Shown: positions 5,577 to 49,328, counted from the first letter of the stretch. The stretch: DNA of 64,000 bases from a virus (IMGVR_UViG_3300021256_000006:35954-99953); one strand, 5' to 3'. Notes: generated by a model from the letters alone, not told the origin. A program made the numbers and translations.

Positions 5577-5653
5577 CCCCCAGGGTGTGTGAGTGTAGCA
5601 AATATCTCACACATCCACTAATTTCAAATTCATCATCTAAATCATCAACAATT

Positions 5654-35034: not shown

Positions 35035-38000
35035 ATGATTAAGCCGGAAAATTACTTCTTTTCACCGTCTGCCATCAGCATTGAACTGAACACAAACCTC
35101 GGTCACGAAGGGATTAACAAGTCTGAGACTTGTGCGGTCTCTGTTGCTGCTGGCTCTGCTGTTCGTTTGACGAATGAATTGACGACAAAGGCTGGTGTGA
35201 AGGTAAATGTGGGATATAATGCGCAATTGGGGTATCGCCAGTTCGTCTTTACTGGCTACAACACGGCTTTTGGCTATCCGGGAAACAAATATATTGGCGC
35301 GGCTATTCGAGTGTATGTCAGGATTGATGCTTCTAATAATGCGTCAACGGGTACTCTGGTGTTCCTACCCTATGAGGTGGACTATGATGGACGTATCTTG
35401 GACGAGGATTTTGTGGCGTATGTTGATATTGCGACAGAGCAGCACACAGAGGTGGTTGGCGGCCAAGAAAGAACTTACTACACGCTGGCAAATACGAATG
35501 AGGATAATGACTCTCACTTGTCATTCTATTATGTGCATATAGGAACCATCGCTGCACCGGAGGACGGGAACCGTATATGGGAGGAGCCACTGAATAGCGG
35601 ACGTCTCGATACGGCAAAGGGGGAGAATGAGGATGGAACGGGGGCCTGGACAAAGATGTTCAGGCTGGTCAACGGCTTGATTGAGTTGCTGCTACCTTTT
35701 AACCGCATTTTCTTCGCAACGGGGAATGCCTACATCAACCGAATCACTGAACAGGTGAATGAAGCGGTAAGCGATTTTGGCTCGTTTACCGAATGGGCGT
35801 ATGCACATACGGTTGCAACGACTCGCTCTGTGGCTTCTTATGTGGAAACGAAGTTGCAGCAACTTGATGGCAGGTTCTTCCGGAAGGATCGCCCGGATGT
35901 TTCTCCGCACATGGCCACTTTTGGCGATATGCGGATTGAGGCTGGATTGGAAAAAGGCGAAGGTGCTTCTTCCGGCTCTCTTGTTGTCGATGGCAACGCT
36001 TCTGTTGATGGAAACGCTCTCGTCAAAGGCACTTCCCGTCTGCAACGAGAACTGACGTTTGGCACAGAAGGGCAAACCGACGATTATGTACAGAACATAA
36101 AGGGCTGCAAGATTTTTTGGGATGGCTCAGGCTGGATGGTGGAGGCCGACTACATGAACATCCACAAGAAACTGTATGCAAAAACCATACAGGCAGATGA
36201 GGTGACTCATGTAGGTGGCGAGAATATCCTTTCCGATGCGAGTTGTATTGCAGATGCCGTCATTCCTTATACCGTGAATGGAACGGTAGTCTTTTGGCGA
36301 GTGTTGTTCCGCAAGAAGAACGGTGAGGACAAGACGGTATATAACCGATGGAAACGTGGAGATATGGCTTATTGTCAGGTCTTTAACGTCCAAGCAGGTA
36401 CCACGTCAGACTTTGAGAACAAATACTATTGGCGAAAGGTCATTGGTACGAACCTTTCCCCGAATCCCGAAATTGAGAATGACTCATTTAGCTCTGACGA
36501 GTACCACTACATAGACCTGTCTAACCAAGCTGGAGAGTTTGACAATGCTGGAGTAATGAGGGTAGATGTTAATGCGGGCTCGATTCCCGCAGCTGAAGAC
36601 CCGATTATTCAAGTCGGTCACATCGCTTCACCCAACGATGACCCTGCAACGGTTATCGAGCGACAAGGTGTGACCATCGTGTCAGGCGGTGGCCAATACA
36701 AGCGTTCAATCATGATGTGGGAAGGTATTGGTGGCGGCACAAATCCGTGGACGTTCCCAGAACCCAAGGTGAAGTTAAGCCCTTACGATGTACGAATCAT
36801 CGCCAATAAGTTCCTCATCAAGACCGACTACGGAGTAACATACCAACCGCCAATTAACAGAGGTGTGTGGGCTAATCTCCCTCCCGAACCAGGGCAATCA
36901 GACAACTTGCACCGTTGCTACAAGGACGATGTTTTGCAGCACAACGGAGCGACTTGGATATGTACCTACATTCAAGTGAGCGGACAGCCAGCATATACCA
37001 CCGAGGAACCTTCCGAAAATGCCGTGAACTGGCAAGTGTATGCCCAGAAAGGAATCAATGGTACTAATGCAGACGTGTGGACCATCGGCCAAGATGGCTA
37101 CTGGTATAAGAACGGAGTCAAGCAGTCAACGAAAGCCGAGGGCAAGGATGGCACGGGTATTGAACTTAGCGGTACGGTGGATGTGCTATTTATCGCAGAC
37201 AAGACCACTCAATCCCAAATTGCATTGGAAGAATTGACTGGCGTGCCCGTTGGTCAATGTTGGACGGTTAGTGCCACACGTCACTTGTATTTTTATAATG
37301 GCACACAACCTGCAGAGGCTGGCGTGAACCCACAAGGTTGGAATGACGTGGGTCTATTCCAAGGACAAGATGGTAAATCGTCCTATATGCACATTGTCTA
37401 TGCAGATAACGTCACCTTTGATGCGCAAGGGAATCCAACTTCCGCAACAGGCTTCACCATTACAAAGCAGAAGGAGGCCTATGCGTGGATGGGCTTATGC
37501 ACGAATGATTCGCAAACAGACCCCACTACCTACACGGCTTACGAATGGAACAAAGTAGAAGGTGCACAAGGCGCACAGGGAACATCTAACGCATCGCTTG
37601 TCATTTCCGACCCGATGATTGTTGTTAATGCTGATTCTTCTGGACGAGCAAAGACCGCTGTTGATAAGACCGTGACCATTACGTTCAGAGTTGGTGACAC
37701 ACAAGCAGCCCTCGTTGATTCACAAAGCAGTGGTGTGACGGGTGTTCCTACGGGTGTGCAAACAACGCTTAACTATGTGGTATATAGCGGAATACTTGTA
37801 CAGGCAACGGTGCGAATACAAATACCTTACAATAACTCTACCTTCCCCTCCACGCTCACCGTCACACTTAGCGGCATTGACCCCACAACAGGACTAACAC
37901 GCACCACAAAAGGTACAATCACATTGGTAGCACAGAGAGACGGAGACAACGGAGAAGATGCCATCAATCCCGTCCTTGACCCTCCATCTTTGCTGATTAA

Positions 38001-39921
38001 CCAAGACATTACAAGTGGACTTTTTGACTTGCCTATATACAGCACTCTGAAGGTGTATAAAGGCGGTGTAGATGATTCCGCCAACGCAAACATTGAGGGG
38101 GTGTCGGCCACTGGTTGTAGTGCTACCTATGAGCAGAACACCAAGCGCATTATTATTAACGGGTGGAGTACAGACTCACAAGGCAATTACTACCAAAGTG
38201 CGACTGTTAATGTTGTTTTCTTGTACGGTGGCGCACCACGCACCATCCAACTCAAAGTTTTTGCTAATCTCGTAGGCACTTGGAAGCAGACCATTGAGGG
38301 GGATGTAAACACTGCTATTGCACAGAAAACTACCTACACCGTCAATGGGCACAGTTACACCGTTTCGGAGAATTTGGGCACGTTTATCCAATCTTCCAGC
38401 GAAAGCATTACCAAACTTGAAGAAACCGTAGGCGACCCCGAAGACCCGACTTCGGGAACGTTGGCTTACCGCACCTCTGCCATTGAACAACACGTAGATA
38501 GAATTGACTTGTCCGTTGCAGAGGGAAATCGCAATTTGCACCCCAATCCCACATTTGCCAACTACAACCCCTACACCAACGGAACAAACCACGAATCGGG
38601 CACATTAGTAGGCAGCGTGGAATATGGCAGCACAATCGGAGCCCACACATCTATCTGGGCGAACGAAGGCGCACAACTTGTAGCCTTGAAGGTGCTTACT
38701 AACACCACAACTGCGGCAACCGTCTTGTATGCCTACAATAGCCCGACTGCCAATCCTCGCATACGTCTGACTGCTGGAAAGACCTATACATGGTCTGTGC
38801 TTGTAGCAGGGGATTTTGAGATGATTTCCGCATCCTCTGTCTTGGTTGAAGGTTCGCTGTACAACTCCAAAACAGGCGACCAACGCCAATCGCCCTGGGA
38901 ATACATTCGTGCAAACGACGCAGTTCTGTGGCGAGATTCAGCGTGGAAACAACTTTACGCCACATTCGAGATTCCTGCCAATTCCGAATACGTTTGGTTT
39001 TCATGGATCCCACTTATTGAAGTCCTTGCTGGCGCAACAGGTAGAATTGTGTATGGCGGCATCCGTCTTGAAGAAGGAACAAAGCCAACCATCATCAACT
39101 ACAACGGTACAGAAGACAAACTTGTCAAAACGGGCATCAATATTGAGAACCACACGATTCGACACACTGCCGACAACTTCATCGTGGAGAACAATCAAGG
39201 TGAACGCACAGCGTGGATAGACAGGTTGGGCAACTTGGGCACGAGCGGAAATGTCTTTACTGGCTTGACGGAGATTAAATCCTCGTCCTTTAATGCTTAT
39301 TTCACAAGTGCGGAATATGATGATATATGGCAAGATGGGGGTGAATATGATTATATCGAGGAAAATGAATATCGTCTCGTTAAAGCAGGAGATGATTATT
39401 TCATTGCCGCTGGCTTGTTTCTCATTCCTGACATCTTCTTGCTTTCCGACATTGTTGTGTTTGACAATTCGTTGCCAACGAGCGGAGACCCCAGGCAAAT
39501 CCTTCTTCCATTCGCCTTGCCACGTTTGTACAGCAATACTGGATATATAGCTGATGTGGTGCGGACAAAGACCAATTACAAGGTAGGTACAGCGCACTTG
39601 CTTGATATGATGGAGTTGTATATGCTTGAAGGGAAGGAATTTACATTTATGACAAAACAAACCATTCAGAACATGTGGCTATTCCGCTTCCCTCGCCTTG
39701 AAGAGCATACAGACAGCGATGGCATGAAATACTACACGCTTGACGAAGAGCACCCGTTTGATACAAAAGACTTTGGAACAAATCCTTTATTAACTATTCA
39801 ATATAAACGATTGCGATTCCAAATCCCCAACGGTGCAGGAGTACTCTACACAGACGGGATAGTGCCAGTCATAAGTCAAACGGGCAACGGATTTTTGTAC
39901 AACAATATAACAGGATTCTAA
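35035..39921 (+). CDS. large tail fibre / host-recognition protein
   Basis: 1628 aa from ATG 35035. It has short collagen-like and G-x-y stretches ('GKDGTGIEL', 'GQDGKSSY', 'GAQGAQGTS'), a beta-rich repetitive composition, and sits upstream of small fibre-like genes. Confidence 0.65.
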   Translation: MIKPENYFFSPSAISIELNTNLGHEGINKSETCAVSVAAGSAVRLTNELTTKAGVKVNVGYNAQLGYRQFVFTGYNTAFGYPGNKYIGAAIRVYVRIDASNNASTGTLVFLPYEVDYDGRILDEDFVAYVDIATEQHTEVVGGQERTYYTLANTNEDNDSHLSFYYVHIGTIAAPEDGNRIWEEPLNSGRLDTAKGENEDGTGAWTKMFRLVNGLIELLLPFNRIFFATGNAYINRITEQVNEAVSDFGSFTEWAYAHTVATTRSVASYVETKLQQLDGRFFRKDRPDVSPHMATFGDMRIEAGLEKGEGASSGSLVVDGNASVDGNALVKGTSRLQRELTFGTEGQTDDYVQNIKGCKIFWDGSGWMVEADYMNIHKKLYAKTIQADEVTHVGGENILSDASCIADAVIPYTVNGTVVFWRVLFRKKNGEDKTVYNRWKRGDMAYCQVFNVQAGTTSDFENKYYWRKVIGTNLSPNPEIENDSFSSDEYHYIDLSNQAGEFDNAGVMRVDVNAGSIPAAEDPIIQVGHIASPNDDPATVIERQGVTIVSGGGQYKRSIMMWEGIGGGTNPWTFPEPKVKLSPYDVRIIANKFLIKTDYGVTYQPPINRGVWANLPPEPGQSDNLHRCYKDDVLQHNGATWICTYIQVSGQPAYTTEEPSENAVNWQVYAQKGINGTNADVWTIGQDGYWYKNGVKQSTKAEGKDGTGIELSGTVDVLFIADKTTQSQIALEELTGVPVGQCWTVSATRHLYFYNGTQPAEAGVNPQGWNDVGLFQGQDGKSSYMHIVYADNVTFDAQGNPTSATGFTITKQKEAYAWMGLCTNDSQTDPTTYTAYEWNKVEGAQGAQGTSNASLVISDPMIVVNADSSGRAKTAVDKTVTITFRVGDTQAALVDSQSSGVTGVPTGVQTTLNYVVYSGILVQATVRIQIPYNNSTFPSTLTVTLSGIDPTTGLTRTTKGTITLVAQRDGDNGEDAINPVLDPPSLLINQDITSGLFDLPIYSTLKVYKGGVDDSANANIEGVSATGCSATYEQNTKRIIINGWSTDSQGNYYQSATVNVVFLYGGAPRTIQLKVFANLVGTWKQTIEGDVNTAIAQKTTYTVNGHSYTVSENLGTFIQSSSESITKLEETVGDPEDPTSGTLAYRTSAIEQHVDRIDLSVAEGNRNLHPNPTFANYNPYTNGTNHESGTLVGSVEYGSTIGAHTSIWANEGAQLVALKVLTNTTTAATVLYAYNSPTANPRIRLTAGKTYTWSVLVAGDFEMISASSVLVEGSLYNSKTGDQRQSPWEYIRANDAVLWRDSAWKQLYATFEIPANSEYVWFSWIPLIEVLAGATGRIVYGGIRLEEGTKPTIINYNGTEDKLVKTGINIENHTIRHTADNFIVENNQGERTAWIDRLGNLGTSGNVFTGLTEIKSSSFNAYFTSAEYDDIWQDGGEYDYIEENEYRLVKAGDDYFIAAGLFLIPDIFLLSDIVVFDNSLPTSGDPRQILLPFALPRLYSNTGYIADVVRTKTNYKVGTAHLLDMMELYMLEGKEFTFMTKQTIQNMWLFRFPRLEEHTDSDGMKYYTLDEEHPFDTKDFGTNPLLTIQYKRLRFQIPNGAGVLYTDGIVPVISQTGNGFLYNNITGF

Positions 39922-39940
39922 CCATTAAAACGAATACATT

Positions 39941-40573
39941 ATGAGCGAAAATAGACAAATGACAATGGGCGGCATCCCTGTTGATGTAGCCGACGAAACA
40001 GCAAGAGCAGCCATCGCCGCCATTCAAGCCCTTATTCCCTCCGAAGCATCGGAAAGCAACCAGCTCGCAGACAAGAATTTTGTCAACTCTACGGTTGCAA
40101 CCAACACGGCGACCTTCCGTGGCACATATAACCTTGTTTCCGACTTAGGCTTGACCATATCTGCCACGCAACAACAGATTGCTGCCGCATTGGCTACCGA
40201 GGTGGACGTGGCAGACAACAACGACTACGCCTATGTGCAGATTCCCACATCCGCACAAAGACCTACGGAGATAGCAAGGATAGACCGATACAAGTTCAAC
40301 GGCACAGCATGGGGGTTTGAGTACACGCTAAATAATTCTGGCTTTACGGCAGACCAATGGGCTGCAATCAACTCCTACATCACGTCCGACTTGGTTTACA
40401 AGTTGCAACGCCTACCCGATTCCAATACTCTGAGCACCTTGCTGAGCGGCAAGCAAGACGTTATTTCAGACCTCGCAGCGATTCGTGCTGGCGCACAAGC
40501 AGGTGCAACGGCACTCCAACCTTCTGACATTTCTGTAGGGGCAGTGATAACCGATATAACAACAATACTATAA
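39941..40573 (+). CDS. fibre-associated protein with C-terminal VITDITTIL motif
   Basis: 210 aa with an Ala-rich coiled N-terminus. It shares a C-terminal peptide with the next gene product. Confidence 0.55.
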   Translation: MSENRQMTMGGIPVDVADETARAAIAAIQALIPSEASESNQLADKNFVNSTVATNTATFRGTYNLVSDLGLTISATQQQIAAALATEVDVADNNDYAYVQIPTSAQRPTEIARIDRYKFNGTAWGFEYTLNNSGFTADQWAAINSYITSDLVYKLQRLPDSNTLSTLLSGKQDVISDLAAIRAGAQAGATALQPSDISVGAVITDITTIL

Positions 40574-40583
40574 CTATAAGACT

Positions 40584-41156
40584 ATGGCAGACTCAGTAAA
40601 TATCAAGCACGTATTTGGCAACCCTCTCCAAATAGCCATCCCTCTCACACAAAGAATAAGAACGTTGGAGGGCGGGCAAGAGATTGAACGCACGGAGGAT
40701 TTCTTCCCTTCTGGTGATGTAAAAGTCGTATTGTGGAGTAACATAAGGACATACGAATACATCGCCACTATGGATGGAAATGTGGCGATTATAACCGATG
40801 ATAAGGGAGAGGTGAGTAGCGGTCTATATGGGGTGACGATTACTTGTTTAGACCAAGAGGGAAAATCGCGAAGATTTGCAATTGCTGATGCAATAAAGAT
40901 AGTCACCTATACAGCAGATGCAGGGATAGTTGCAGGAGTTGAGTTTAATGCGGAAACATATACACTTGAAGGTGCGGTCTTCTTTTATGCCAAGGGAGAA
41001 AAGGGTGATAAAGGCGACCCATTCACTTATGAAGACTTTACTCCTGCACAGATAGCGGAATTGCAAAAGCCTGCAACCGATGCTGCACAAATGGTAAATG
41101 AAACATTATCACACTACATTGGGAACGTGATAACCGACATAACTGATATTCTTTAA
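40584..41156 (+). CDS. fibre-associated protein with a collagen-like triplet run and C-terminal VITDITDIL motif
   Basis: 190 aa, with 'GEKGDKGDP' and a shared C-terminal peptide. Confidence 0.55.
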   Translation: MADSVNIKHVFGNPLQIAIPLTQRIRTLEGGQEIERTEDFFPSGDVKVVLWSNIRTYEYIATMDGNVAIITDDKGEVSSGLYGVTITCLDQEGKSRRFAIADAIKIVTYTADAGIVAGVEFNAETYTLEGAVFFYAKGEKGDKGDPFTYEDFTPAQIAELQKPATDAAQMVNETLSHYIGNVITDITDIL

Positions 41157-41175
41157 CTAATTAAATTATAAGACT

Positions 41176-43065
41176 ATGACTAAAGAAATAAGACCATTGC
41201 AGCGGTATAATGCGAATACCGAACAGACAGAAATTTTCTATCCTGCCACAACGACCGACGCGATTGCGCACCCCACAAAAAGAAAGTCGCTAACAAACGT
41301 GATTTCTGACATAGAAGCAAGTATTGCCGACATCGAGACGATTGCCGAGGGCTATGTGCGTGTGGCTGGTTCGTCAAGTCCTGCTCTCTCTTACAAGTCA
41401 TACAAGTATCACGAACAGGGCGGCTTCGGACGTGAATCTGTGTTCTCGCTGTTCTACCCCTGTCTGGTGGGAACACCGCTGACAGGCAGTGGCACAGAAG
41501 GCAAGGTGCTTCATGTGCTTCAGAAGTTCGGTGCAAGAACTATCGACGGAAGCCCGAAATGGCTTGACATCTACGGAACACCTCATGCCATCGACGGCTC
41601 GGAGGGTGACGTGCTGATTGTGAACATTGAACCATTTTACAGCATCAACGGCAAGCACACAATCGAGGGCACGGAGTATGATGTATTCCTGATGTCGCGC
41701 TCACCATTCACCTGGCAGGGCATCGAGGCAGAGCACATGGAGAAGTTCGGATGGAGCCCTGACTACTGCGTGAGCCATACGGACACCGACAACGTGGTGC
41801 GTATGCACTCAGTTTATAACCCTGCGTGGAACGGATCATACCAAGCACCTCAAGGCGTGACTGGCAAGTACGTCTATACCACCGACCCTGAGACGGGCGA
41901 CATTGTGGAAACCTATGATGCAAACGAGACACTGCTGGGTGGTGCAGGTGGCTTGCACTCTACTGACATCGACCTGACTACGGGTGAACAACGAGCCATG
42001 AACATGAACGCTGACCCGACGAAGACCGTGCCATGGATGAACCAGACGGCAGAGGGTTGCAACCGACTGATGTCGCTGATACTGGCAGAGGGTGGCACGT
42101 TCGATGCGCACAACGCAGCTCGTATGGGTAGTGGTTTCTCATCCAATGACCCCGCCACCGCAGCAGGCGACTGGGAACAGGCGGGCAGCGGTGCGAAGAA
42201 CGGTTTGCGCGTGAAGGACAAGAACGACGCATGGAAGTACTACGGAATGAACGGCAACGTCCGCTTCCTGACGGGTGCAACGTCGGGTGCGGTGTATGCT
42301 GCCAACGTTATCAACTCTTGGCGAAATCCGTGGCACATTCTGGAGGCGCACCGTGCGATGTCGTATGCTATTGAGAACGACGTGCACGAGCTGGAGTGGT
42401 TTGTGTTCGAGGGCAACAAGTACAAGTACCGCAGCGTGCAAGGCTTCAACGGTCCGAGTCACGGAGAAATGACCTGTGTGGTGTGGAAGCTCATGGCAAC
42501 ACAGGCTGGTGCCAATGCCATCGACCCGACAGACAACGCAACGAGCATCGCAGGCAATCGCGTGGAAATACTCGTCAGCACAGCACTCGTTCACGGCATG
42601 ACTACGCAGGTATCACCTTCGTGGTGGACTTCAGGACTGCTGTTCACGGAAGATGAGAGCGGACAGTATGAGTGCTTCATTGAGCGCGACCAGGCAGAAC
42701 TGGTGAAGGGCATTGCCGCTGACAATTACGACCCAGCAACACCACGAAACTTCGAGACTATCTACGATCATGTGCTCACCGTACAGAAGGGCGAAGGCTA
42801 CGCTAAGAACTATCTGAACGGAGCGCTGATGCTGCCTGATACCAATGCCAACAAGACTGGGGCAGGCTTGCATACCTATGTTGGCAAATACAACTGGTTT
42901 ACGGGTAGCAATGCAAGTGCTGGGAAGCGGTCGGTCCGTGGCTTCCGGCGCGGCGCCCTCGCTAACTACGCGGTCCTGTCTCCGTTGGCGCTGAACGCTT
43001 ACTACTCGCCCTCGGGCGCGGGCACGGGCCTCGGCTTCGGCACCTGTTGTCGCATAGCGGAATAG
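41176..43065 (+). CDS. DGR target protein with a C-terminal variable (C-type-lectin-like) region
   Basis: The last ~40 codons (42927-43049) form the variable repeat matching the template repeat at 43299-43421. The TR-encoded 'RGFRRGNNANNTN...NIGFGN' follows the usual Asn(AAC)-rich CLec-type pattern. Confidence 0.85.
   Translation: MTKEIRPLQRYNANTEQTEIFYPATTTDAIAHPTKRKSLTNVISDIEASIADIETIAEGYVRVAGSSSPALSYKSYKYHEQGGFGRESVFSLFYPCLVGTPLTGSGTEGKVLHVLQKFGARTIDGSPKWLDIYGTPHAIDGSEGDVLIVNIEPFYSINGKHTIEGTEYDVFLMSRSPFTWQGIEAEHMEKFGWSPDYCVSHTDTDNVVRMHSVYNPAWNGSYQAPQGVTGKYVYTTDPETGDIVETYDANETLLGGAGGLHSTDIDLTTGEQRAMNMNADPTKTVPWMNQTAEGCNRLMSLILAEGGTFDAHNAARMGSGFSSNDPATAAGDWEQAGSGAKNGLRVKDKNDAWKYYGMNGNVRFLTGATSGAVYAANVINSWRNPWHILEAHRAMSYAIENDVHELEWFVFEGNKYKYRSVQGFNGPSHGEMTCVVWKLMATQAGANAIDPTDNATSIAGNRVEILVSTALVHGMTTQVSPSWWTSGLLFTEDESGQYECFIERDQAELVKGIAADNYDPATPRNFETIYDHVLTVQKGEGYAKNYLNGALMLPDTNANKTGAGLHTYVGKYNWFTGSNASAGKRSVRGFRRGALANYAVLSPLALNAYYSPSGAGTGLGFGTCCRIAE
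42927..43049 (+). repeat. DGR variable repeat (VR)
   Basis: 123 nt collinear with the TR at a constant offset of 372 nt. All 24 differences fall at TR adenines. Confidence 0.9.
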
Positions 43066-43109
43066 AAAACGTAAACCCCGCGAGCAAGGCGAGCGCGAAA
43101 ACGAAAACT

Positions 43110-43126
43110 GCGCGGCTGAGCCGCGC
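43110..43126 (+). other. GC-rich hairpin downstream of the VR
   Basis: GCGCGGC-TGA-GCCGCGC, a 7-bp stem about 60 nt after the VR end. It may be the DGR target-recognition hairpin or cruciform. Confidence 0.4.
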
Positions 43127-43155
43127 CCGCTGAGCAATAGCGAAGGCTATAATAC

Positions 43156-43174
43156 TGCCGCAAGGCGGCATTTT
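43156..43174 (+). terminator. Rho-independent terminator after the DGR target gene
   Basis: TGCCGC-AAG-GCGGCA followed by TTTT. Confidence 0.5.
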
Positions 43175-43298
43175 GCCCGAATAGTGTGGAGATGTGGTGC
43201 GACATCGTTGAAGCAAAAATCCATGCCACCGACCAAAGCGCACAAGGGAATCGGAGTACCCGTCAGGTGGTGAGGTTGAAATAAGGCGGCTGCACTGT

Positions 43299-43421
43299 AC
43301 GGTCGGTCCGTGGCTTCCGGCGCGGCAACAACGCTAACAACACGAACCTGTCTCCGTTGACGATGAACGCTAACAACTCGCCCTCGAACGCGAACACGAA
43401 CATCGGCTTCGGCAACTGAAA
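43299..43421 (+). repeat. DGR template repeat (TR)
   Basis: Non-coding copy of the VR. It holds 33 adenines, 24 of which differ in the VR. In the VR frame it is rich in AAC codons. Confidence 0.9.
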
Positions 43422-43621
43422 CGCAGTAACGAAATACATAAGCCCTCCAATGCTTGACCTGAGCATGAAGAGGCAGGTGCAGAGCCTCGCTGACGAAGAG
43501 AGCGGAACAACGCAGGAAAAGGTGCTAAGACCACCAGCCGACCGCGCAAGAATGAGCGAAGGAAAGGGTAGGCTGCAAGGCGTTCAAAAACCTTGCTATC
43601 GGCGCAACAGGTCATAAAGCG

Positions 43622-43642
43622 TTCAGCGGTTCCCCCGCTGAA
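43622..43642 (+). repeat. 8-bp-stem hairpin (TTCAGCGG-TTCCC-CCGCTGAA) 18 nt upstream of the RT start
   Basis: Identical 17-nt core, located in the TR-RT spacer. Confidence 0.8.
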
Positions 43643-43659
43643 AAACAAAGAAAAGAACA

Positions 43660-44988
43660 ATGGGGACATCCACATGGAACAACATCACCACCGGCCTTCA
43701 CGCTGCTGTATATGACAGCTACATGGCCAAGAGCTCACGCCAACGCGCCAAGCGTGAGGTGGTGGAGGTCATGGCAGATGTGGACGGGTTCTGCCAACGG
43801 AAGCAGGCAGAGCTGGCAAGCGGCAGCTACCATGTGGGTGACTATCGTCACTTCCAGTTGAAGGACAAGAAGAAGGAGCGTAGCATCTCTGTACTGCCCT
43901 ATGAAGACCGCTGCGTGCAGAATGCTATCAAGGATGCCATAGAGCCGCTATTGCTCCGTCAGATGACCGACGACATGATGGGAGGTCTGCCTGGTTGCGG
44001 CGTGCTGGCAAGCGACAAGCGGCACCAGGTGGTGGCACGGATGCGGGTGATGCTGAACGACCGCTCGCTGAGGTATTGCTTGCAAGGTGACATCGAGAAG
44101 TTCTACGACCATGTGGATAATGTCATCAGTATGCGGCTCATTGAGAAGCAGGTGAAAGACAAGCGCACAAGGGCGGTTATCCGTCAACACCTCTTCAACC
44201 AGAAGCGGCTCGCTATTGGTGATCCATTCAGTCACCTTATCGCCAATCTCAATACGTCGGTCATTATTCGCAAGGCAAAGGAGTTGTACGGCAATAGCAT
44301 CAAGGTGGTCAATTTTGCCGACGACTTCATAGCCTTCAGCAGAGACAAGACAATCCTCAATGCCCTGCGGAAAGATATGAAGATATGGGCAAAGGCGATG
44401 CGGTTGCATTACAAGCCGATGTACGTGCGTCCCATAGACCCGCAACCAGGAAAGGAATACAACCCTATTATCTTCTGCGGCTACAAGTGCGGGCGTGGTT
44501 ATGTTCACCTCACCCCGCGCACTAAGAAACGATACGTCAAGACCCGACACAAGGAACGCAGTATTGGCTCCTATCAGGGCATTATCGGCGTGGCTGACAC
44601 GAAACATCTGAGACTAAAAGTACAAATTAACGATAACAAAACTATGAGCGAGAAAATCAGGCGACCATTTGCAGGACGCCCCATGAAGATAGAAACGATG
44701 GAAGGTATCAACCACACCATTGTGGACTTTCAGAAACGCAGCAGCAATCAGAAGGACTGCGACAGTTACTATCACATCCAGGCACTTGCCGACGGGCTGG
44801 GGCTAATAGTCTATTCGACGGGCGCACAGAAAATCTGCAAGTATCTCGACACCAAGAGAAGGACGGACATCCCATTGCGTGACATGAAGATAGTGCACGA
44901 CTGGAGTGGATTCTACTACGATGGCACCGTATATACCGATGCCGAGGAAGAGGAAATGATTCGCAAACAATTTAACATATCGAAATAA
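43660..44988 (+). CDS. DGR reverse transcriptase
   Basis: RT motifs 'ISVLPYEDRCVQNAI', 'LQGDIEKFYDHVD', 'IGDPFSHLIANL' and 'VNFADDFIAF' (YxDD equivalent). It lies directly downstream of the TR. Confidence 0.9.
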   Translation: MGTSTWNNITTGLHAAVYDSYMAKSSRQRAKREVVEVMADVDGFCQRKQAELASGSYHVGDYRHFQLKDKKKERSISVLPYEDRCVQNAIKDAIEPLLLRQMTDDMMGGLPGCGVLASDKRHQVVARMRVMLNDRSLRYCLQGDIEKFYDHVDNVISMRLIEKQVKDKRTRAVIRQHLFNQKRLAIGDPFSHLIANLNTSVIIRKAKELYGNSIKVVNFADDFIAFSRDKTILNALRKDMKIWAKAMRLHYKPMYVRPIDPQPGKEYNPIIFCGYKCGRGYVHLTPRTKKRYVKTRHKERSIGSYQGIIGVADTKHLRLKVQINDNKTMSEKIRRPFAGRPMKIETMEGINHTIVDFQKRSSNQKDCDSYYHIQALADGLGLIVYSTGAQKICKYLDTKRRTDIPLRDMKIVHDWSGFYYDGTVYTDAEEEEMIRKQFNISK

Positions 44989-44989
44989 T

Positions 44990-45331
44990 ATGAGACAAGA
45001 ACGATTTTCAGAGCCTCACAAGCAAGGCTTGATGAAGCTCACTGGTGACAACACAGGACTGGTGTACTGCAACGAGCGCACCGAAGTAGTAACCGACGAA
45101 GAGGGCAACGAAAAGACGGAGTACGTGTACGACGTGTACGAGGTCACAGATGCCCGCGACCCTCACAAGGTGAAGAATGAGGTGATAGAGAATGAGCACC
45201 CCTTCGGCGATGAGACGAAGATACTGCGCAAGACCATTGCCAAGATGCTAAAGGCATCAGGTCAGTATAACAGCGAGGACTTCCGAGAGTTTAAGCAATA
45301 CAACGAATTTGTCGAAAGCATCGACGTATAG
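44990..45331 (+). CDS. hypothetical acidic protein downstream of the RT
   Basis: 113-aa ORF starting 2 nt after the RT stop. No motif recognised. Confidence 0.55.
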   Translation: MRQERFSEPHKQGLMKLTGDNTGLVYCNERTEVVTDEEGNEKTEYVYDVYEVTDARDPHKVKNEVIENEHPFGDETKILRKTIAKMLKASGQYNSEDFREFKQYNEFVESIDV

Positions 45332-45355
45332 CCAAACGCAAATAACACTCCTATC

Positions 45356-45835
45356 ATGTTCCATACTCTCACACACACCTATGACAAGCTGTGCAACATC
45401 CTGCAACGCCCCGCAGGATGGGCACTTGGCATCCTATTTGCCATCGCAAACTACTTTGAGGGACACTCTTTTGTCGTATTCCTCGTCGTCGCTGTCACAC
45501 TCATTGACGCGGCCTGGGGAATAGCGGTCAGTATTCATCAAGGACACTTCACGCTTTCAGAACTCCTGCGGCTCACCATTGCCAAACTCGGCGTGTACGG
45601 TTCAGCCCTCTTTGTATTCGTGGGCCTCGACAAGTTCATGAACAGCACCATCACCACATCCGTCGTCGCTGGTGCCATCGTCCTTGTGGAGTTTTGGAGT
45701 TCCTGCGGAAGTATGCTGATTCTCTTCCCCAACTTTCTCTTCCTCCGTTTATTGAAGAAAGCCCTCACGGGAGAGATAGCAAGCAAATTGAACATTCCCG
45801 AAGAGGATGTTGAAAAAGTGTTGCGCAATGGATAA
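45356..45835 (+). CDS. holin-like membrane protein
   Basis: Three to four hydrophobic helices. 'LIDAAWGIAVSI...KLGVY' resembles the phage holin family 4 pattern. It lies upstream of the endolysin. Confidence 0.55.
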   Translation: MFHTLTHTYDKLCNILQRPAGWALGILFAIANYFEGHSFVVFLVVAVTLIDAAWGIAVSIHQGHFTLSELLRLTIAKLGVYGSALFVFVGLDKFMNSTITTSVVAGAIVLVEFWSSCGSMLILFPNFLFLRLLKKALTGEIASKLNIPEEDVEKVLRNG

Positions 45836-45971
45836 GGTACTCGGATTCTGCGAAATTGATAAGGTGCTTGGCTTTTGCACAATGGATAAGATAGGCGGTT
45901 TCTTGATGATAGCCTTTCTCGTCTGGCTCATGTACGAGGCATACAAATATGACAAGCGAAATCACGGATAA
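45828..45971 (+). CDS. small membrane protein (47 aa)
   Basis: Hand-translated ORF overlapping the holin stop. It has one hydrophobic helix, 'GGFLMIAFLVWLMY'. Confidence 0.35.
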   Translation: MDKVLGFCEIDKVLGFCTMDKIGGFLMIAFLVWLMYEAYKYDKRNHG

Positions 45972-46052
45972 AATCCTTCTTGCTGCCTACACGCTCGCGC
46001 TCTGCGCAATGTTTTGGGCGTGGGCAAAGGACAAGGAATAAATAAGAAAAAT

Positions 46053-46490
46053 ATGAAGTACTTTACTATTACTGAGTTGACAAAAAGCTCGACGGCTCAA
46101 CGGAAAGGCATCAAGAACACACCCAGCGATGAGGTGCGCAAAAGCCTCACGGCCCTCATTGAGAAGGTGCTTGACCCTCTCCGTGAAGCATACGGTAAAC
46201 CTATAGTTGTTAATTCGGGTTACAGGTGCCCAAAACTGAATGCGGCTGTAGGAGGTTCTGCTTCCTCTCAGCACGTCAAAGGAGAAGCAGCCGACATCAG
46301 GAGTGTGGCCGACACGCCCGAAGAAAATAAGAAGCTCTACGACCTCATCGTGAAGTTGAAACTCCCCTTTGACCAACTCATCAATGAGTATAATTTCGAT
46401 TGGGTGCACGTCTCGTTCGGTCCTCGGCATCGACGCCAACGATTGAAAGCGGTAAAGAAAAATGGCAGGACATCTTACATTCCGGCATAA
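46053..46490 (+). CDS. peptidase M15 (D-Ala-D-Ala carboxypeptidase-like) endolysin
   Basis: 'SGYRCPKLNAAVGGSASSQHVKGEAADI' and 'DWVHVS' match the zinc-ligand H..D...H pattern of M15 phage endolysins. Start set at MKYF. Confidence 0.85.
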   Translation: MKYFTITELTKSSTAQRKGIKNTPSDEVRKSLTALIEKVLDPLREAYGKPIVVNSGYRCPKLNAAVGGSASSQHVKGEAADIRSVADTPEENKKLYDLIVKLKLPFDQLINEYNFDWVHVSFGPRHRRQRLKAVKKNGRTSYIPA

Positions 46491-46497
46491 TCTCATA

Positions 46498-46513
46498 ACT
46501 GACAGCGGTCAGT
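46498..46513 (+). terminator. stem-loop after the endolysin gene
   Basis: ACTGAC-AGCG-GTCAGT, 8 nt after the stop. There is no clear U tract. Confidence 0.35.
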
Positions 46514-46623
46514 CGATTCTTTCATATACGTTTAAGGTTAATAATAAGATTAGTGTTTTTTCACGGTTGGCTAACCACTTGGGAAAGCCGTTAGCCATTT
46601 TCAACTCTTAAAAAATAAATGTT

Positions 46624-47220
46624 ATGACAAACTTTGCAAAAAAACACCCAAACATCGCCTCCGTAGTGAGCGTGATTTTATTCTTTGTGTTCATGGCTGT
46701 GCTTTCCGCCCTGACGGGATGCAAGAGCTCGCACCAGGTAGTGACCGTCGTCACAACAGACACGCTGCATGTGTACCACACGGACACGCTGAAGGTGGTG
46801 CACAATGATACCATTCGGGAAGTAATAACCAAAGTGGTGCATGACTCCATCGTTAAGGGGACGATTATCAAGGAGGTGGTGAATGAATTGGGAGAAGTAA
46901 TCCATTCGGAAAAGGAGACCAACAGCGAAGTGTGGCACAACAGCGACACCAATTCATCCCTCATTCAGCATACCGTTGACAGCATCCTTCAAGTCAAGAT
47001 GGATTCTATCTACAATTCCAAGTACAACGAGAAGCCTGTAATTGTTGAGGTGGAGAAACCTACGCCCTGGTATAGGAAGGCTTGGAACTGGATAGTAAAC
47101 AGGTTTGCCCATCTGATGGGTACTTTGGCTTTCTTCTTGCTCCTGTATTTCTTGCCGGATATTCGGAAGGTTATCGGATGGATCATCTCAAAAAGAACAA
47201 GGAATGACTCCGGAACTTAA
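46624..47220 (+). CDS. lipoprotein with a C-terminal transmembrane helix (unimolecular spanin candidate)
   Basis: Signal peptide with lipobox 'LSALTGC' and a C-terminal helix 'LMGTLAFFLLLYFL'. It lies directly after the endolysin. Confidence 0.55.
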   Translation: MTNFAKKHPNIASVVSVILFFVFMAVLSALTGCKSSHQVVTVVTTDTLHVYHTDTLKVVHNDTIREVITKVVHDSIVKGTIIKEVVNELGEVIHSEKETNSEVWHNSDTNSSLIQHTVDSILQVKMDSIYNSKYNEKPVIVEVEKPTPWYRKAWNWIVNRFAHLMGTLAFFLLLYFLPDIRKVIGWIISKRTRNDSGT

Positions 47221-47246
47221 TTAGCAGGTGCTGAACTTGCCGCTTC

Positions 47247-47272
47247 ACCAAGGACAAAAAAATCCTTGGTGT
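47247..47272 (+). terminator. stem-loop terminator
   Basis: CACCAAGGA-N8-TCCTTGGTG, a 9-bp stem 27 nt after the spanin stop. Confidence 0.5.
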
Positions 47273-47300
47273 AATAAATCTCTTACCTTTCATTACACAT

Positions 47301-47386
47301 AAAATGCCCTACAGCATGACCAAGGATTTTTTAACCTTTCTTGCTGTACGGGCATATATTGTTTTTGTGTATGTCGGTTGGTAAGA
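47301..47386 (-). ncRNA. candidate small RNA (minus strand)
   Basis: A minus-strand TACTTTTG box (47393-47400) is followed by about 85 nt ending in a long stem (47306-47353) plus ATTTT. The architecture matches the Cas12a-repeat RNA at 14 kb. There is no ORF. Confidence 0.3.
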
Positions 47387-47423
47387 GTGATGCAAAAGTA
47401 TGGATTAAAAATTAAATAACCAA

Positions 47424-47651
47424 ATGAAAGCGGCAAAATTATTAAAAATCGGTGCAGAAATTCTAAAAATGATGTCAGAAAATGACCTTAGAGTGAAAGA
47501 TGTAGAACATTTAGACCTTTATGTTGACTACAAAAATGCACGCAAAAATAAGGTAAAATATAATGCGATTGTCTATGACCTCTCTATACGGTATAATATT
47601 TCGGAAAGCACAGTAAAACGCATCATCCGGCGGTTTGAAAGGGAGGTATGA
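47424..47651 (+). CDS. small HTH-like protein
   Basis: 75 aa. 'YNISESTVKRIIRRFE' resembles a C-terminal HTH, as in Mor or sigma region 4-like regulators. Confidence 0.5.
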   Translation: MKAAKLLKIGAEILKMMSENDLRVKDVEHLDLYVDYKNARKNKVKYNAIVYDLSIRYNISESTVKRIIRRFEREV

Positions 47652-47783
47652 AGGGGGTCAACGGCTGAACCTTGCATTTTGCCTGTTTGTTTGTTCGTGT
47701 TTGTTTCTTCTACGATATTTGCCATCGTCATTGCGCATGGCAATAGCAAATCATTTTATTAACAAACACAAACACCAAAGATT

Positions 47784-48338
47784 ATGGCATTAGATTCTAA
47801 CGACCTGATGATGCTGAAGGAGATGAATGGCAACATGTCTCCATACGAGCAGTTTAAGGTGGGCCACATGCAGTCACGACGCGCTTCTGGAACGTCTATC
47901 GGTGCACTGGGCGTCGGCATCGGCGCTGCCGTGTTGGGCATCGGAGCATGGGTGTTCGCTCCTCTTTATGGCAATGCAAAGGCTGCACAGGCTAAAGAGG
48001 TGGCTAATGCGGCTAAGGAACAAGCAACACTCCTGGCCGCTGGCACACAGCGACAACTCGACCAGCTCACTAACCTTTTTGCTGCCGAACGTCAAGAACG
48101 CATCAACGGAGATTACTCCATTACGCAAACAGTCAACGACACCGTTTCTTCTGCACAGCAGGGAACGCTGACTGCACAGCAGGCCGCAGAACTCGCCGCT
48201 TCACAGGCTACACAGCAGGTGATGCAGCAGACTTTTGCGGACGCAGTAACCGGACGTTCTTCGCTGAACGCAACTCCTGTGCAGATTTATTCTGCACCAC
48301 AGCCTTGTGGCTGCCCCGGTTGCGGATGCAATGGCTAA
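47784..48338 (+). CDS. membrane protein with a Cys-rich C-terminus
   Basis: 184 aa with a Gly-rich TM helix 'IGALGVGIGAAVLGIGAWVF', a Gln/Ala-rich coiled region and a terminal 'PQPCGCPGCGCNG'. Confidence 0.6.
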   Translation: MALDSNDLMMLKEMNGNMSPYEQFKVGHMQSRRASGTSIGALGVGIGAAVLGIGAWVFAPLYGNAKAAQAKEVANAAKEQATLLAAGTQRQLDQLTNLFAAERQERINGDYSITQTVNDTVSSAQQGTLTAQQAAELAASQATQQVMQQTFADAVTGRSSLNATPVQIYSAPQPCGCPGCGCNG

Positions 48339-48354
48339 ATCTCTTCGAGGGAAT

Positions 48355-48379
48355 GGTATGCCGGACCTTCCGGCATACC
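48355..48379 (+). terminator. GC-rich stem-loop terminator
   Basis: GGTATGCCGG-ACCTT-CCGGCATACC, a 10-bp stem 17 nt after the stop. Confidence 0.55.
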
Positions 48380-48402
48380 TCTCTCTCTAAAAACACGGCA
48401 AA

Positions 48403-48771
48403 ATGTTATGGCTTAATAAGGATAAGGAACGTAAATTGGCTATCATGCAAGCAATAACTCCAACAAGCAAGACCTCTCTAAAAAGACAATGCCTATTTGC
48501 AGCAAAAGGAAACCTGAAAGAGGCAAGGGAACTCTATGATTTCTTTGCTGAGGACTTGAAGGACTTACCTGACTGTGACCCAGTTGCACCTACATGGCAG
48601 GAAAATGCTGCTAATACCGTGAATGGTATTATGGGATGGCTGAAGGAGAACCAGGGAACGCTGGTGGACGCATACTCGTTTGTGCAGGGCATTATCACAA
48701 ACAAGGGAGTGCTGCCGGTCATGAACGTGGCGGAGGATGCGGAACAGGCACTGGAGCCAATCAATGAATAA
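48403..48771 (+). CDS. hypothetical protein
   Basis: 122-aa ORF. The start is uncertain (alternative ATG at 48445, 'MQAITP'). Confidence 0.5.
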   Translation: MLWLNKDKERKLAIMQAITPTSKTSLKRQCLFAAKGNLKEARELYDFFAEDLKDLPDCDPVAPTWQENAANTVNGIMGWLKENQGTLVDAYSFVQGIITNKGVLPVMNVAEDAEQALEPINE

Positions 48772-48782
48772 GGCACGGCAAT

Positions 48783-48995
48783 ATGGCACAGAATAATGTG
48801 AAAAGAATCGCTTTTAATATCTATGCGGACTCTGACGAGGAAGCGGAAAGCGGAAGACAAGCCATCATCATGTTTATCAACATGGTCGGACAGCATGGAT
48901 ATAAGGTCAGCGGAAACAAAATAGCAGAGGCTGTCAATAAAATGAAATCTAATCATTTTATTGCAACACAAGTAATCAATTTCTTTAAAAGGTAA
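48783..48995 (+). CDS. hypothetical protein
   Basis: 70-aa ORF, tightly packed. Confidence 0.5.
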   Translation: MAQNNVKRIAFNIYADSDEEAESGRQAIIMFINMVGQHGYKVSGNKIAEAVNKMKSNHFIATQVINFFKR

Positions 48996-48998
48996 ACT

Positions 48999-49328
48999 AT
49001 GGCAGACAACGGAACAACGGCAACGAATGCCCAGCAAACATCACACTGCACCGGGGATTGCAGGAAATGTATGCCAATACAGAGAGCTTACTGCTCGTCT
49101 CAAATTGCTTACAGCAACATGAAGTTGCTGGATGCACTCACACAGTCTGTGGCAGCGCTTGACAATTCTGTTAAAATGATTCAGGCAAAAGTGGAGGCAA
49201 TTCAAGGCAACGAGGCGCTTCTCTTTGCTCCATCGCATACAGATAGTTTGCCAACACAACAAACTCAAGAACAAGAGGGTCACGTATGCACCGATGCCAT
49301 CGGCGCAGAAACTCCATCTGCAGAATAG
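48999..49328 (+). CDS. hypothetical Cys-containing protein
   Basis: 109-aa ORF with 'HCTGDCRKCMPIQRAYC'. Confidence 0.5.
   Translation: MADNGTTATNAQQTSHCTGDCRKCMPIQRAYCSSQIAYSNMKLLDALTQSVAALDNSVKMIQAKVEAIQGNEALLFAPSHTDSLPTQQTQEQEGHVCTDAIGAETPSAE

Follow-up and report, generated by a model that had tools for sequence, protein, structure and literature searches.

An Avd-less diversity-generating retroelement with adenine-specific variation in the tail-fibre-like module of a probable Bacteroidales/Prevotella phage

We analysed a 64,000-nt stretch of viral DNA (IMGVR_UViG_3300021256_000006, 35954-99953; hereafter the window, with positions counted from its first letter) and in particular the diversity-generating retroelement (DGR) that lies between 41176 and 44988. 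The cassette, with all its genes and repeats on the plus strand, begins with a target gene for a protein of 629 residues (41176-43065), which is the last gene of a tail-fibre-like module. The last ~40 codons of this gene form the variable repeat (VR; 42928-43046, residues 585-624 of 629). Downstream follow a non-coding template repeat (TR; 43300-43418), which matches the VR over 119 nt without gaps, and a gene for a reverse transcriptase (RT) of 442 residues (43660-44988). An acidic open reading frame (ORF) of 113 codons (44990-45331, plus strand; isoelectric point 4.8) abuts the RT gene, starting 2 nt after its stop codon.

The ungapped homology of TR and VR was delimited independently by a repeat finder and by BLAST to 119 nt, at an offset of 372 and with 83% identity. 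This core holds 20 mismatches and all 20 fall on TR adenines, 20 of the 29 TR adenines being changed in the VR; the number of non-A mismatches in the window is zero. For 20 mismatches placed at random over 119 positions, the chance of finding every one of them on the 29 adenines is 4e-16. The initial annotation had compared a slightly longer pair at the same offset, 42927-43049 against 43299-43421, and had counted 24 mismatches, all with A in the TR and another base in the VR, over 33 TR adenines. We reproduced these counts, and the 20 mismatches within the 119-nt homology stand as evidence. Those at 42927 and 43047-43049 do not, since the flanks are non-homologous there. The AAC codons of the TR, previously given as ten, number 12, and 11 of them lie inside the mutagenised zone delimited below. 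Translated in the VR frame the TR reads RSVRGFRRGNNANNTNLSPLTMNANNSPSNANTNIGFGN, and each of its 29 adenines occupies codon position 1 or 2. A second VR was not found in the 64-kb window, where the next-best TR-like site agrees at 45 of 90 non-A positions.

Searches of IMG/VR with the target protein gave 25 loci and with the RT protein 11 loci, from which 19 distinct contigs with the same cassette were obtained. Family counts were made over a 77-nt mutagenised zone with the 19 loci aligned in register. TR and VR differ at 314 of 495 A-templated cells versus 2 of 968 non-A cells. The adenine columns of the TRs are near-invariant across the family, and the VRs show all four bases at these columns. 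In 21 non-A columns that are polymorphic between the TRs, VR and TR of the same locus agree in 396 of 396 cells, and therefore TR information has been copied into the VR repeatedly in each lineage. The same A-restricted pattern was present in four of five further loci from metagenome-assembled genomes (MAGs) or isolates. The DGR with adenine-specific TR/VR divergence that had been proposed for the window is thus borne out by an A-only pattern in the window itself and in about 20 relatives. Names of the MAGs and isolates among the relatives point to Bacteroidales, Bacteroidaceae and Prevotella from rumen or gut. Within 50,697 deposited phage records, neither a DNA near-identity search with 41000-45400 nor tblastn with the target protein gave a match, and RTs in these genomes were only 23-30% identical to that of the window. 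A distant relative of the whole cassette occurs on a 90-kb contig of the isolate Prevotella sp. MGM1 (NZ_BEWV01000204.1, hereafter L044); its VR and TR differ by 12 A-to-N changes and one non-A change, and its RT is 46% identical to the window RT. The locus is prophage-like and, coming from an isolate, L044 is also a possible experimental handle.

The limits of the zone that is subject to mutagenesis could be read from the family alignment. The last mutagenised adenine is at 43030. The 12 nt after it, TCGGCTTCGGCA, are the same in VR and TR, and according to the per-column table of the 19 loci the terminal A of this segment (43042) is unchanged in every VR. The four bases beyond 43042 are CCTG in every VR and ACTG, CATG or AATA in the TRs; in full, 19 of 19 family VRs end GGCACCTG and the TR counterparts are GGCAACTG, GGCACATG or GGCAAATA. 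Since the VRs are fixed at 43043 in all 19 loci while the TRs differ, the mismatch at this position (A in the TR, C in the VR) is, judged from the alignment, not due to mutagenesis and represents a fixed VR/TR boundary difference of the type known for the initiation of mutagenic homing (IMH) site, IMH/IMH*. With 43043 excluded, the mutagenised zone of the VR therefore comprises 42955-43030 (plus strand) with 19 substitutions relative to the TR among its 27 adenine-templated positions. The constant 3' end of the VR, TCGGCTTCGGCACCTG (43031-43046, plus strand), as delimited by the per-column table and a listing of the flanks, is IMH-like and by analogy with BPP-1, the prototype DGR phage of Bordetella, may act as an IMH. 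The homology that was said to continue with indels past 43049/43421 proved to be slight; aligned locally, the 3' flanks agree at best at 15 of 20 positions with one gap, and nothing comparable is seen in the relatives.

Located 64 nt 3' of the VR is a GC-rich hairpin, GCGCGGC-TGA-GCCGCGC (43110-43126, no strand assigned). GC-rich hairpins, not conserved in sequence, are found 31-176 nt 3' of the VR in 17 of the 19 family loci. The hairpin may be the terminator of the target gene or the counterpart of the cruciform of the DGR of Bordetella phage BPP-1. In BPP-1 the GC hairpin directly follows the IMH, unlike the arrangement in the window. Scans of the cassette for sigma-70 promoters and terminators were uninformative for a Bacteroidales phage.

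Recent diversification is documented by a second contig, L037 (ENA ERZ12302812, NODE_360, 99,478 nt), an independent assembly that matches window positions 35176-49065. Along these 13,890 nt the two sequences differ by 15 substitutions only, all of them within 42955-43030 and all at positions where the TR has an adenine, and the TR itself is the same in both. The two target proteins agree throughout residues 1-593 and differ by 10 substitutions, which are confined to residues 594-619. Homing must therefore have occurred at least once since the most recent of all other mutations in the 13.9 kb, and the pair provides an unusually clean natural demonstration of DGR activity. Polymorphism restricted to A-templated VR positions, which the initial annotation had envisaged for sequencing reads, was in this way found at the level of contigs (15 of 15 differences to L037 at TR-A sites), which is a partial test. 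Decay of the DGR is real in the family, as shown by one relative (L006) with a deletion in the RT palm and by two (L003 and L005) that lack the TR, the spacer RNA and almost the entire RT gene, and no Avd was found in the window; the TR/VR pair could accordingly be a relic that records past mutagenesis, with an element that no longer works in this phage. However, the RT ORF of the window is intact with all catalytic residues, there is not a single non-A mismatch between TR and VR, and the backbone shared with L037 has remained the same over 13.9 kb while the VRs came to differ at 15 A-templated positions. We therefore regard a relic as very improbable compared to an element that is still functional.

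By sequence comparison and by its modelled fold, the ORF 43660-44988 encodes an RT of the DGR type. The motifs IGDPFSH (residues 186-192) and VNFADDF (residues 217-223), which had been noted in this ORF, are both present. The protein matches RVT_1 of Pfam at 1.9e-15 and the phage RT PHROG 1423 at 1.9e-42, and its best match among PDB sequences is 8ub7_A (4.9e-11), the RT (bRT) of the Bordetella phage DGR ribonucleoprotein (RNP). The same structure is the best Foldseek match (E 1.8e-16, TM-score 0.76 on target) of an AlphaFold2 (AF2) model with a mean predicted local distance difference test (pLDDT) score of 77; group II intron RTs come next and retron RT structures rank below bRT. When the family profile was compared with BPP-1 Brt by hhalign, residues 10-322 of 328 were aligned with 98.4% probability. 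Residues 1-324 of the window RT span the whole of bRT, and D138, D215/D216, R74 and I181 of bRT correspond to D144, D221/D222, R74 and I186. In bRT, R74 and I181 promote adenine mutagenesis, and DGR RTs carry the signature [I/V/L]GxxxSQ in place of QGxxxSP (PMC7826257). The window motif IGDPFSH keeps the I, G and S of the DGR signature, and the Q and P residues of group II RTs are absent. A Q-to-P change in the signature motif of bRT left misincorporation unaltered (PMC7826257). The remaining residues, 325-442, form an extra C-terminal domain of 118 residues that is strongly conserved and, at moderate AF2 confidence, beta-rich. Residues 320-442 have no significant match among Pfam families or PDB sequences, and a BFVD search with the domain returned long alignments to other phage RTs and nothing interpretable for the domain itself.

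Matches of the window RT in NCBIfam are to group II intron, retron and Drt3a models only, and GenBank labels related phage RTs as 'retron-type'. Both points could be taken to mean that the RT is that of a group II intron, retron or defence system and that TR and VR go back to an unrelated duplication, whose copies have since accumulated ordinary mutations or differences from recombination among variants of the phage. The NCBIfam scores are, however, far under the cut-offs, with 67 bits against 300 for the group II intron model TIGR04416, 23 bits against 235 for the retron model NF038233 and 21 against 200 for Drt3a. The region 42800-45400 has no Rfam match at E <= 1, no Rfam retron RNA was detected, and the nearest relative of the RT by sequence, fold and profile is the BPP-1 DGR RT, in agreement with the DGR type that had been proposed instead of a group II intron or retron. 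Moreover, ordinary divergence cannot place 20 of 20 mismatches in the window, or 314 of 316 in the family, on the adenines of one copy while the other sites co-vary perfectly. We consider this explanation to be effectively refuted, with next to no probability left to it.

The order target-VR, TR and RT is maintained in 19 of 19 loci, with 169-416 nt between the stop codon of the target and the TR and 207-297 nt between the TR and the RT gene. The initial annotation had called the DGR complete, which holds in the sense of an accessory-less TR-RT architecture, and fails in so far as no Avd was found; Avd is present in ~74% of DGRs. Two candidates for an accessory protein were rejected. An ORF of 55 codons (43450-43617) has a broken frame in most relatives, while its nucleotide sequence and pairing are conserved. 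ORFs on the minus strand in the spacer between VR and TR, considered as a reversed avd, were discarded given the variable length of this spacer (169-416 nt) and an insignificant match to Avd. The 113-aa ORF lies directly 3' of the RT gene in every family locus with 50-87% identity, while the gene after it is matched only in the near-identical L037. A search with this ORF yielded 277 homologous clusters, all within the same phage group and none of them named. It is possible that it represents an accessory gene, or else an ordinary conserved phage gene; its role in the DGR is unproven because the two contigs that have lost TR and RT (L003 and L005) retain it. Judged by its small size and acidity, the ORF is reminiscent of CH1, a type of accessory protein in Avd-less DGRs of Bacteroides that has 160-169 aa compared to 113 aa here.

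RNA structure around the TR is conserved. A segment of ~180 nt in the spacer between TR and RT (43436-43615, plus strand), running from ATAAGCCCUC to ACAGGUC, is conserved far above its surroundings and forms an Sp-like structured RNA. RNAalifold predicted 32 pairs in it, 10 of them with compensatory changes; 98.8% of the cells are paired versus 23-37% with slid partners, and the covariation score is 0.212 compared to 0.075 in shuffles. The near-invariant long-range helix GACCUG:CAGGUC closes this RNA. With a covariance model, a single copy was detected in the window and a single copy in each DGR locus, L044 included (56 bits), and none in BPP-1 or in relatives without RT. After addition of L044, compensatory changes were seen in 16 of 28 pairs of a model-fitted alignment, which leans towards structure. 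The TR is furthermore bracketed by a duplex of an upstream strand, GGCGGCTGCAC (43285-43295, plus strand), which ends 4 nt before the TR, and a strand within the spacer RNA, GUGCAGAGCC (43477-43486, plus strand). In 19 of 19 loci the upstream strand, GGCGGCUGCAC, pairs with 43477-43486, with compensatory changes from C:G to U:A at three pairs (two in L009 and L013, one in L022) and a further change to A:U in L044.

Farther upstream, the element AATCGGAGTACCCGTCAGGTGGTGAGGTTGA (43249-43279, plus strand), 5' of the TR, occurs in all family loci despite the variable length of the VR-TR spacer and is possibly the 5' portion of the DGR RNA, or else the region of its promoter. Its pattern, AATCGGAGTA[C/G]CCG...GGTGGTGAGGTTGA, shows hints of a covarying hairpin. 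Rfam gave no match in the cassette, and folding of the TR-spacer RNA as a single sequence was no better than that of shuffled sequences (z = +0.95), so that the structure is seen by comparative analysis only. A helix AGGC:GCCU proposed by RNAalifold (alignment columns 47-50/60-63) was not accepted; it is invariant except for one unpaired cell in L009 and competes with the better-supported duplex between the upstream strand and Sp. Pairing of UCGGC in the TR with GCCGA in Sp as template and primer was likewise rejected for now, with the Sp segment being part of a compensatory helix and the pairing not maintained in L044.

Upstream of the target lie a gene whose product has 1646 residues and a pair of small ORFs, one with weak matches to tail-fibre PHROGs, and the cassette is followed by a putative holin-like ORF (no family match) and an endolysin gene. 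This position between fibre-like genes and a lysis module agrees with the earlier view of the target as the last gene of a fibre cluster. The 629-aa target itself has no match in Pfam, NCBIfam, PHROGs or PDB sequences; its C-terminus matches no Pfam, NCBIfam or PHROG entry even at E 10, a target profile found nothing in the PDB, and hhalign against Mtd of BPP-1 gave 0.1% probability. Homologous proteins form 396 clusters, many of them of 850-1095 aa with N-terminal extensions, and an exhaustive HMMER scan of 1.84 billion representatives with the last 200 residues of the target retrieved only 39 clusters. The VR region has a constant RGF... start, LSPL and SPS islands and a GFG end, with GGGFRV in distant members. 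This pattern (R-G-F ... GFG; GGGFRV) presumably resembles that of C-type-lectin (CLec) VRs; the CLec scaffold suggested for the VR is an assumption.

It is likely, by analogy with BPP-1 and from the place of the gene at the end of the tail-fibre-like module, that the target has a receptor-binding role and that its diversification alters receptor binding and host range. The DGR might alternatively be active on a protein with another function, for example in a non-structural or counter-defence role, as has been suggested for the second target of certain gut phages. In favour of this are the non-structural DGR targets known from 'Quimbyviridae' phages (PMC8008677), the lack of any recognisable domain in the target and the weakness of the PHROG matches of its upstream neighbours to tail fibres. 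On the other hand, the target is co-oriented with large structural-type genes, which it directly follows, and precedes the endolysin gene. Relatives fuse the target domain to N-terminal extensions homologous to ORF 39941-40573 of the window. Collagen repeats and Phage_fiber_rpt were each found in one of 32 family representatives scanned, and Pfam PF02839 in six homologues among the matches listed. We therefore consider a function other than receptor binding to be distinctly unlikely.

Altogether, we think it highly probable that the window contains a functional and recently active Avd-less DGR of an uncultured tailed Bacteroidales/Prevotella phage, which diversifies a protein of the tail-fibre module. 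Several observations weigh against this reading. The VR evidence comes from assembled contigs, and a VR assembled from metagenomic data may combine several variants of a population into a mosaic. The RT signature [I/V/L]GxxxSQ reads IGDPFSH here, and its His is invariant in 48 homologues. Neither cassette spacer contains a conserved ORF in the 19 loci, and the best phmmer match of BPP-1 Avd to 597 window ORFs had an E value of 0.68. A priming site was not located, the candidate UCGGC:GCCGA pairing being unsupported by the divergent L044. CLec, FGE-sulfatase and DUF1566 families were detected neither in the target nor in 31 diverse relatives that were scanned, and the AF2 model of the target, built on an alignment of 55 sequences, is unusable (pLDDT 53, and <35 over residues 538-629), its Foldseek matches being meaningless. 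Gene position is the only ground for assuming that the target binds a ligand.

We propose that a functional DGR at this locus would work as follows, with the order of the steps, the priming site and the part played by the constant 3' segment taken by analogy from BPP-1. A non-coding RNA would be transcribed over roughly 43285-43615 and would comprise the upstream segment, the TR and the ~180-nt structured spacer. While the duplex 43285-43295:43477-43486 would bracket the TR, the folded spacer would recruit the RT, which would make a cDNA of the TR that is faithful at U, C and G and carries misincorporations opposite adenines. This cDNA would replace the VR at 42928-43046, the direction being set by the constant TCGGCTTCGGCA followed by the VR-specific CCTG, and up to 16 codons would be randomised among the last ~40 residues of the target. 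All this would take place without Avd. How the element could dispense with Avd is a matter of a tentative proposal, which we consider possible but rather unlikely in its full form: the roles of Avd would be taken by the conserved C-terminal RT domain of 118 aa, perhaps aided by the 113-aa ORF, and by the lineage-specific ~180-nt spacer RNA closed by GACCUG:CAGGUC, and the C-terminal scaffold of the target would lie outside the known CLec or immunoglobulin (Ig) classes of VRs. If the RT domain and the spacer RNA do replace Avd, the family would be a tractable model of Avd-independent mutagenic retrohoming.

The DGR of the window shares important features with that of BPP-1 (mtd-avd-TR-brt). Both have a VR at the 3' end of a tail-fibre gene, a non-coding, AAC-rich TR 5' of the RT gene, TR/VR differences at adenines only, a structured RNA 3' of the TR and a duplex between the sequences that flank the TR. 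The window RT aligns over all of bRT with the catalytic Asp residues and the equivalents of R74 and I181 kept, at an identity of 23-26%. Differences concern Avd, which is present in BPP-1 and missing here, the 118-aa domain beyond the end of bRT, the motif SH in place of SQ, the target, which has no similarity to Mtd, and the GC hairpin, here at a distance of about 64 nt 3' of the VR. In BPP-1 the duplex between upstream and downstream sequences around the TR stops cDNA synthesis and the Sp RNA envelops bRT; TR-flanking RNA elements of this kind were shown for BPP-1 and predicted in 207 DGRs, in a survey limited to Avd-containing DGRs (bioRxiv 10.1101/2023.10.23.563531).

The accessory-less Architecture A (A1 being the TR-RT core) accounts for 29% of catalogued DGRs, the Avd-less Lineage 3 includes a sublineage 3A that is found only in Bacteroides and relatives, and in ~20% of DGR RTs the C-terminus is extended by as much as ~150 aa (Wu et al. 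2018, PMC5758913). The window DGR resembles Architecture A1 in its order of target-VR, TR and RT without an avd, HRDC or MSL gene. It may be likened to Lineage 3 by this layout and by the Bacteroidales, Bacteroidaceae and Prevotella names of its relatives, and its RT likewise has an extended C-terminus. With the DGRs of gut Bacteroidetes phages (Hankyphage p00, 'Quimbyviridae', crAss-like phages and Bacteroides uniformis siphophages) it has in common the host phylum and a target that follows tail-fibre genes; it differs from them in an RT that is only 23-30% identical and in a target and 41000-45400 DNA that are unmatched in deposited genomes. The activity of those DGRs was likewise deduced from A-site variation among near-identical genomes (PMC8008677).

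DGRs that act on receptor-binding genes of phages are well established and common in viromes of gut and rumen, so that the existence of one in the window is no surprise. The lineage of Bacteroidales/Prevotella phages to which it belongs is uncharacterised, yet abundant (264-396 protein clusters), and has no close counterpart among deposited phage genomes. Of further interest are the RNA architecture and the conserved C-terminal domain of the RT. An Avd-less DGR that keeps a covariation-supported RNA architecture around its TR bears on the question how Avd-less DGRs assemble their RNP.

The family also contains decay states (deletion of TR and RT, deletion in the RT palm, fusion of VR and TR), which could serve the study of DGR loss. 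In L003 (2717-3055) and L005 (3072-3426), which correspond to window positions ~43280-44922, the target, the conserved element 5' of the TR position and the 113-aa ORF are kept, whereas the TR, the spacer RNA and all of the RT gene except for its last ~65 nt are missing. From their sequence, these two contigs represent a natural deletion of the DGR core that would leave a frozen VR. In L006 (6313-7140) an internal deletion has removed the RT palm including the ADD motif (275 aa), and its VR still has A-to-N differences, together with a few non-A differences at the edges; this suggests a recent inactivation of the RT. The target of L021 (1203-1321) runs into TR-type sequence (...RGNNANNTNLSPLTMNANNSPSN...), followed by spacer RNA and RT, and the interval from VR to TR is missing. 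Two database proteins, P0106 and P0257, end like the L021 target. Either a real deletion by VR/TR recombination or collapse of the repeat during assembly could account for L021.

Elsewhere in the window, a 1696-aa DarB-like antirestriction, methyltransferase/helicase protein (5585-10675; PHROG 10089, E 1e-261) and a 2245-aa tape-measure protein (16327-23067, minus strand) are encoded, and the window therefore stems from a large long-tailed phage. No tRNA genes were detected in the window. Upstream of the target, the ORFs 39941-40573 and 40584-41156 both end ...VITDIT(T/D)IL, and a similar motif, NVISDIEASIADIETI, occurs in the N-terminal part of the target (41176-41350); it appears that the fibre of this phage is divided over separate ORFs, with a conserved motif at the junctions. 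A tandem array of three 27-nt copies (TTGCGCAATGGATAAGGTACTCGGATTCT-like) is located at 45821-45903, immediately 3' of the putative holin-like ORF, and belongs to a small ORF whose product repeats the peptide MDKVLGFC.

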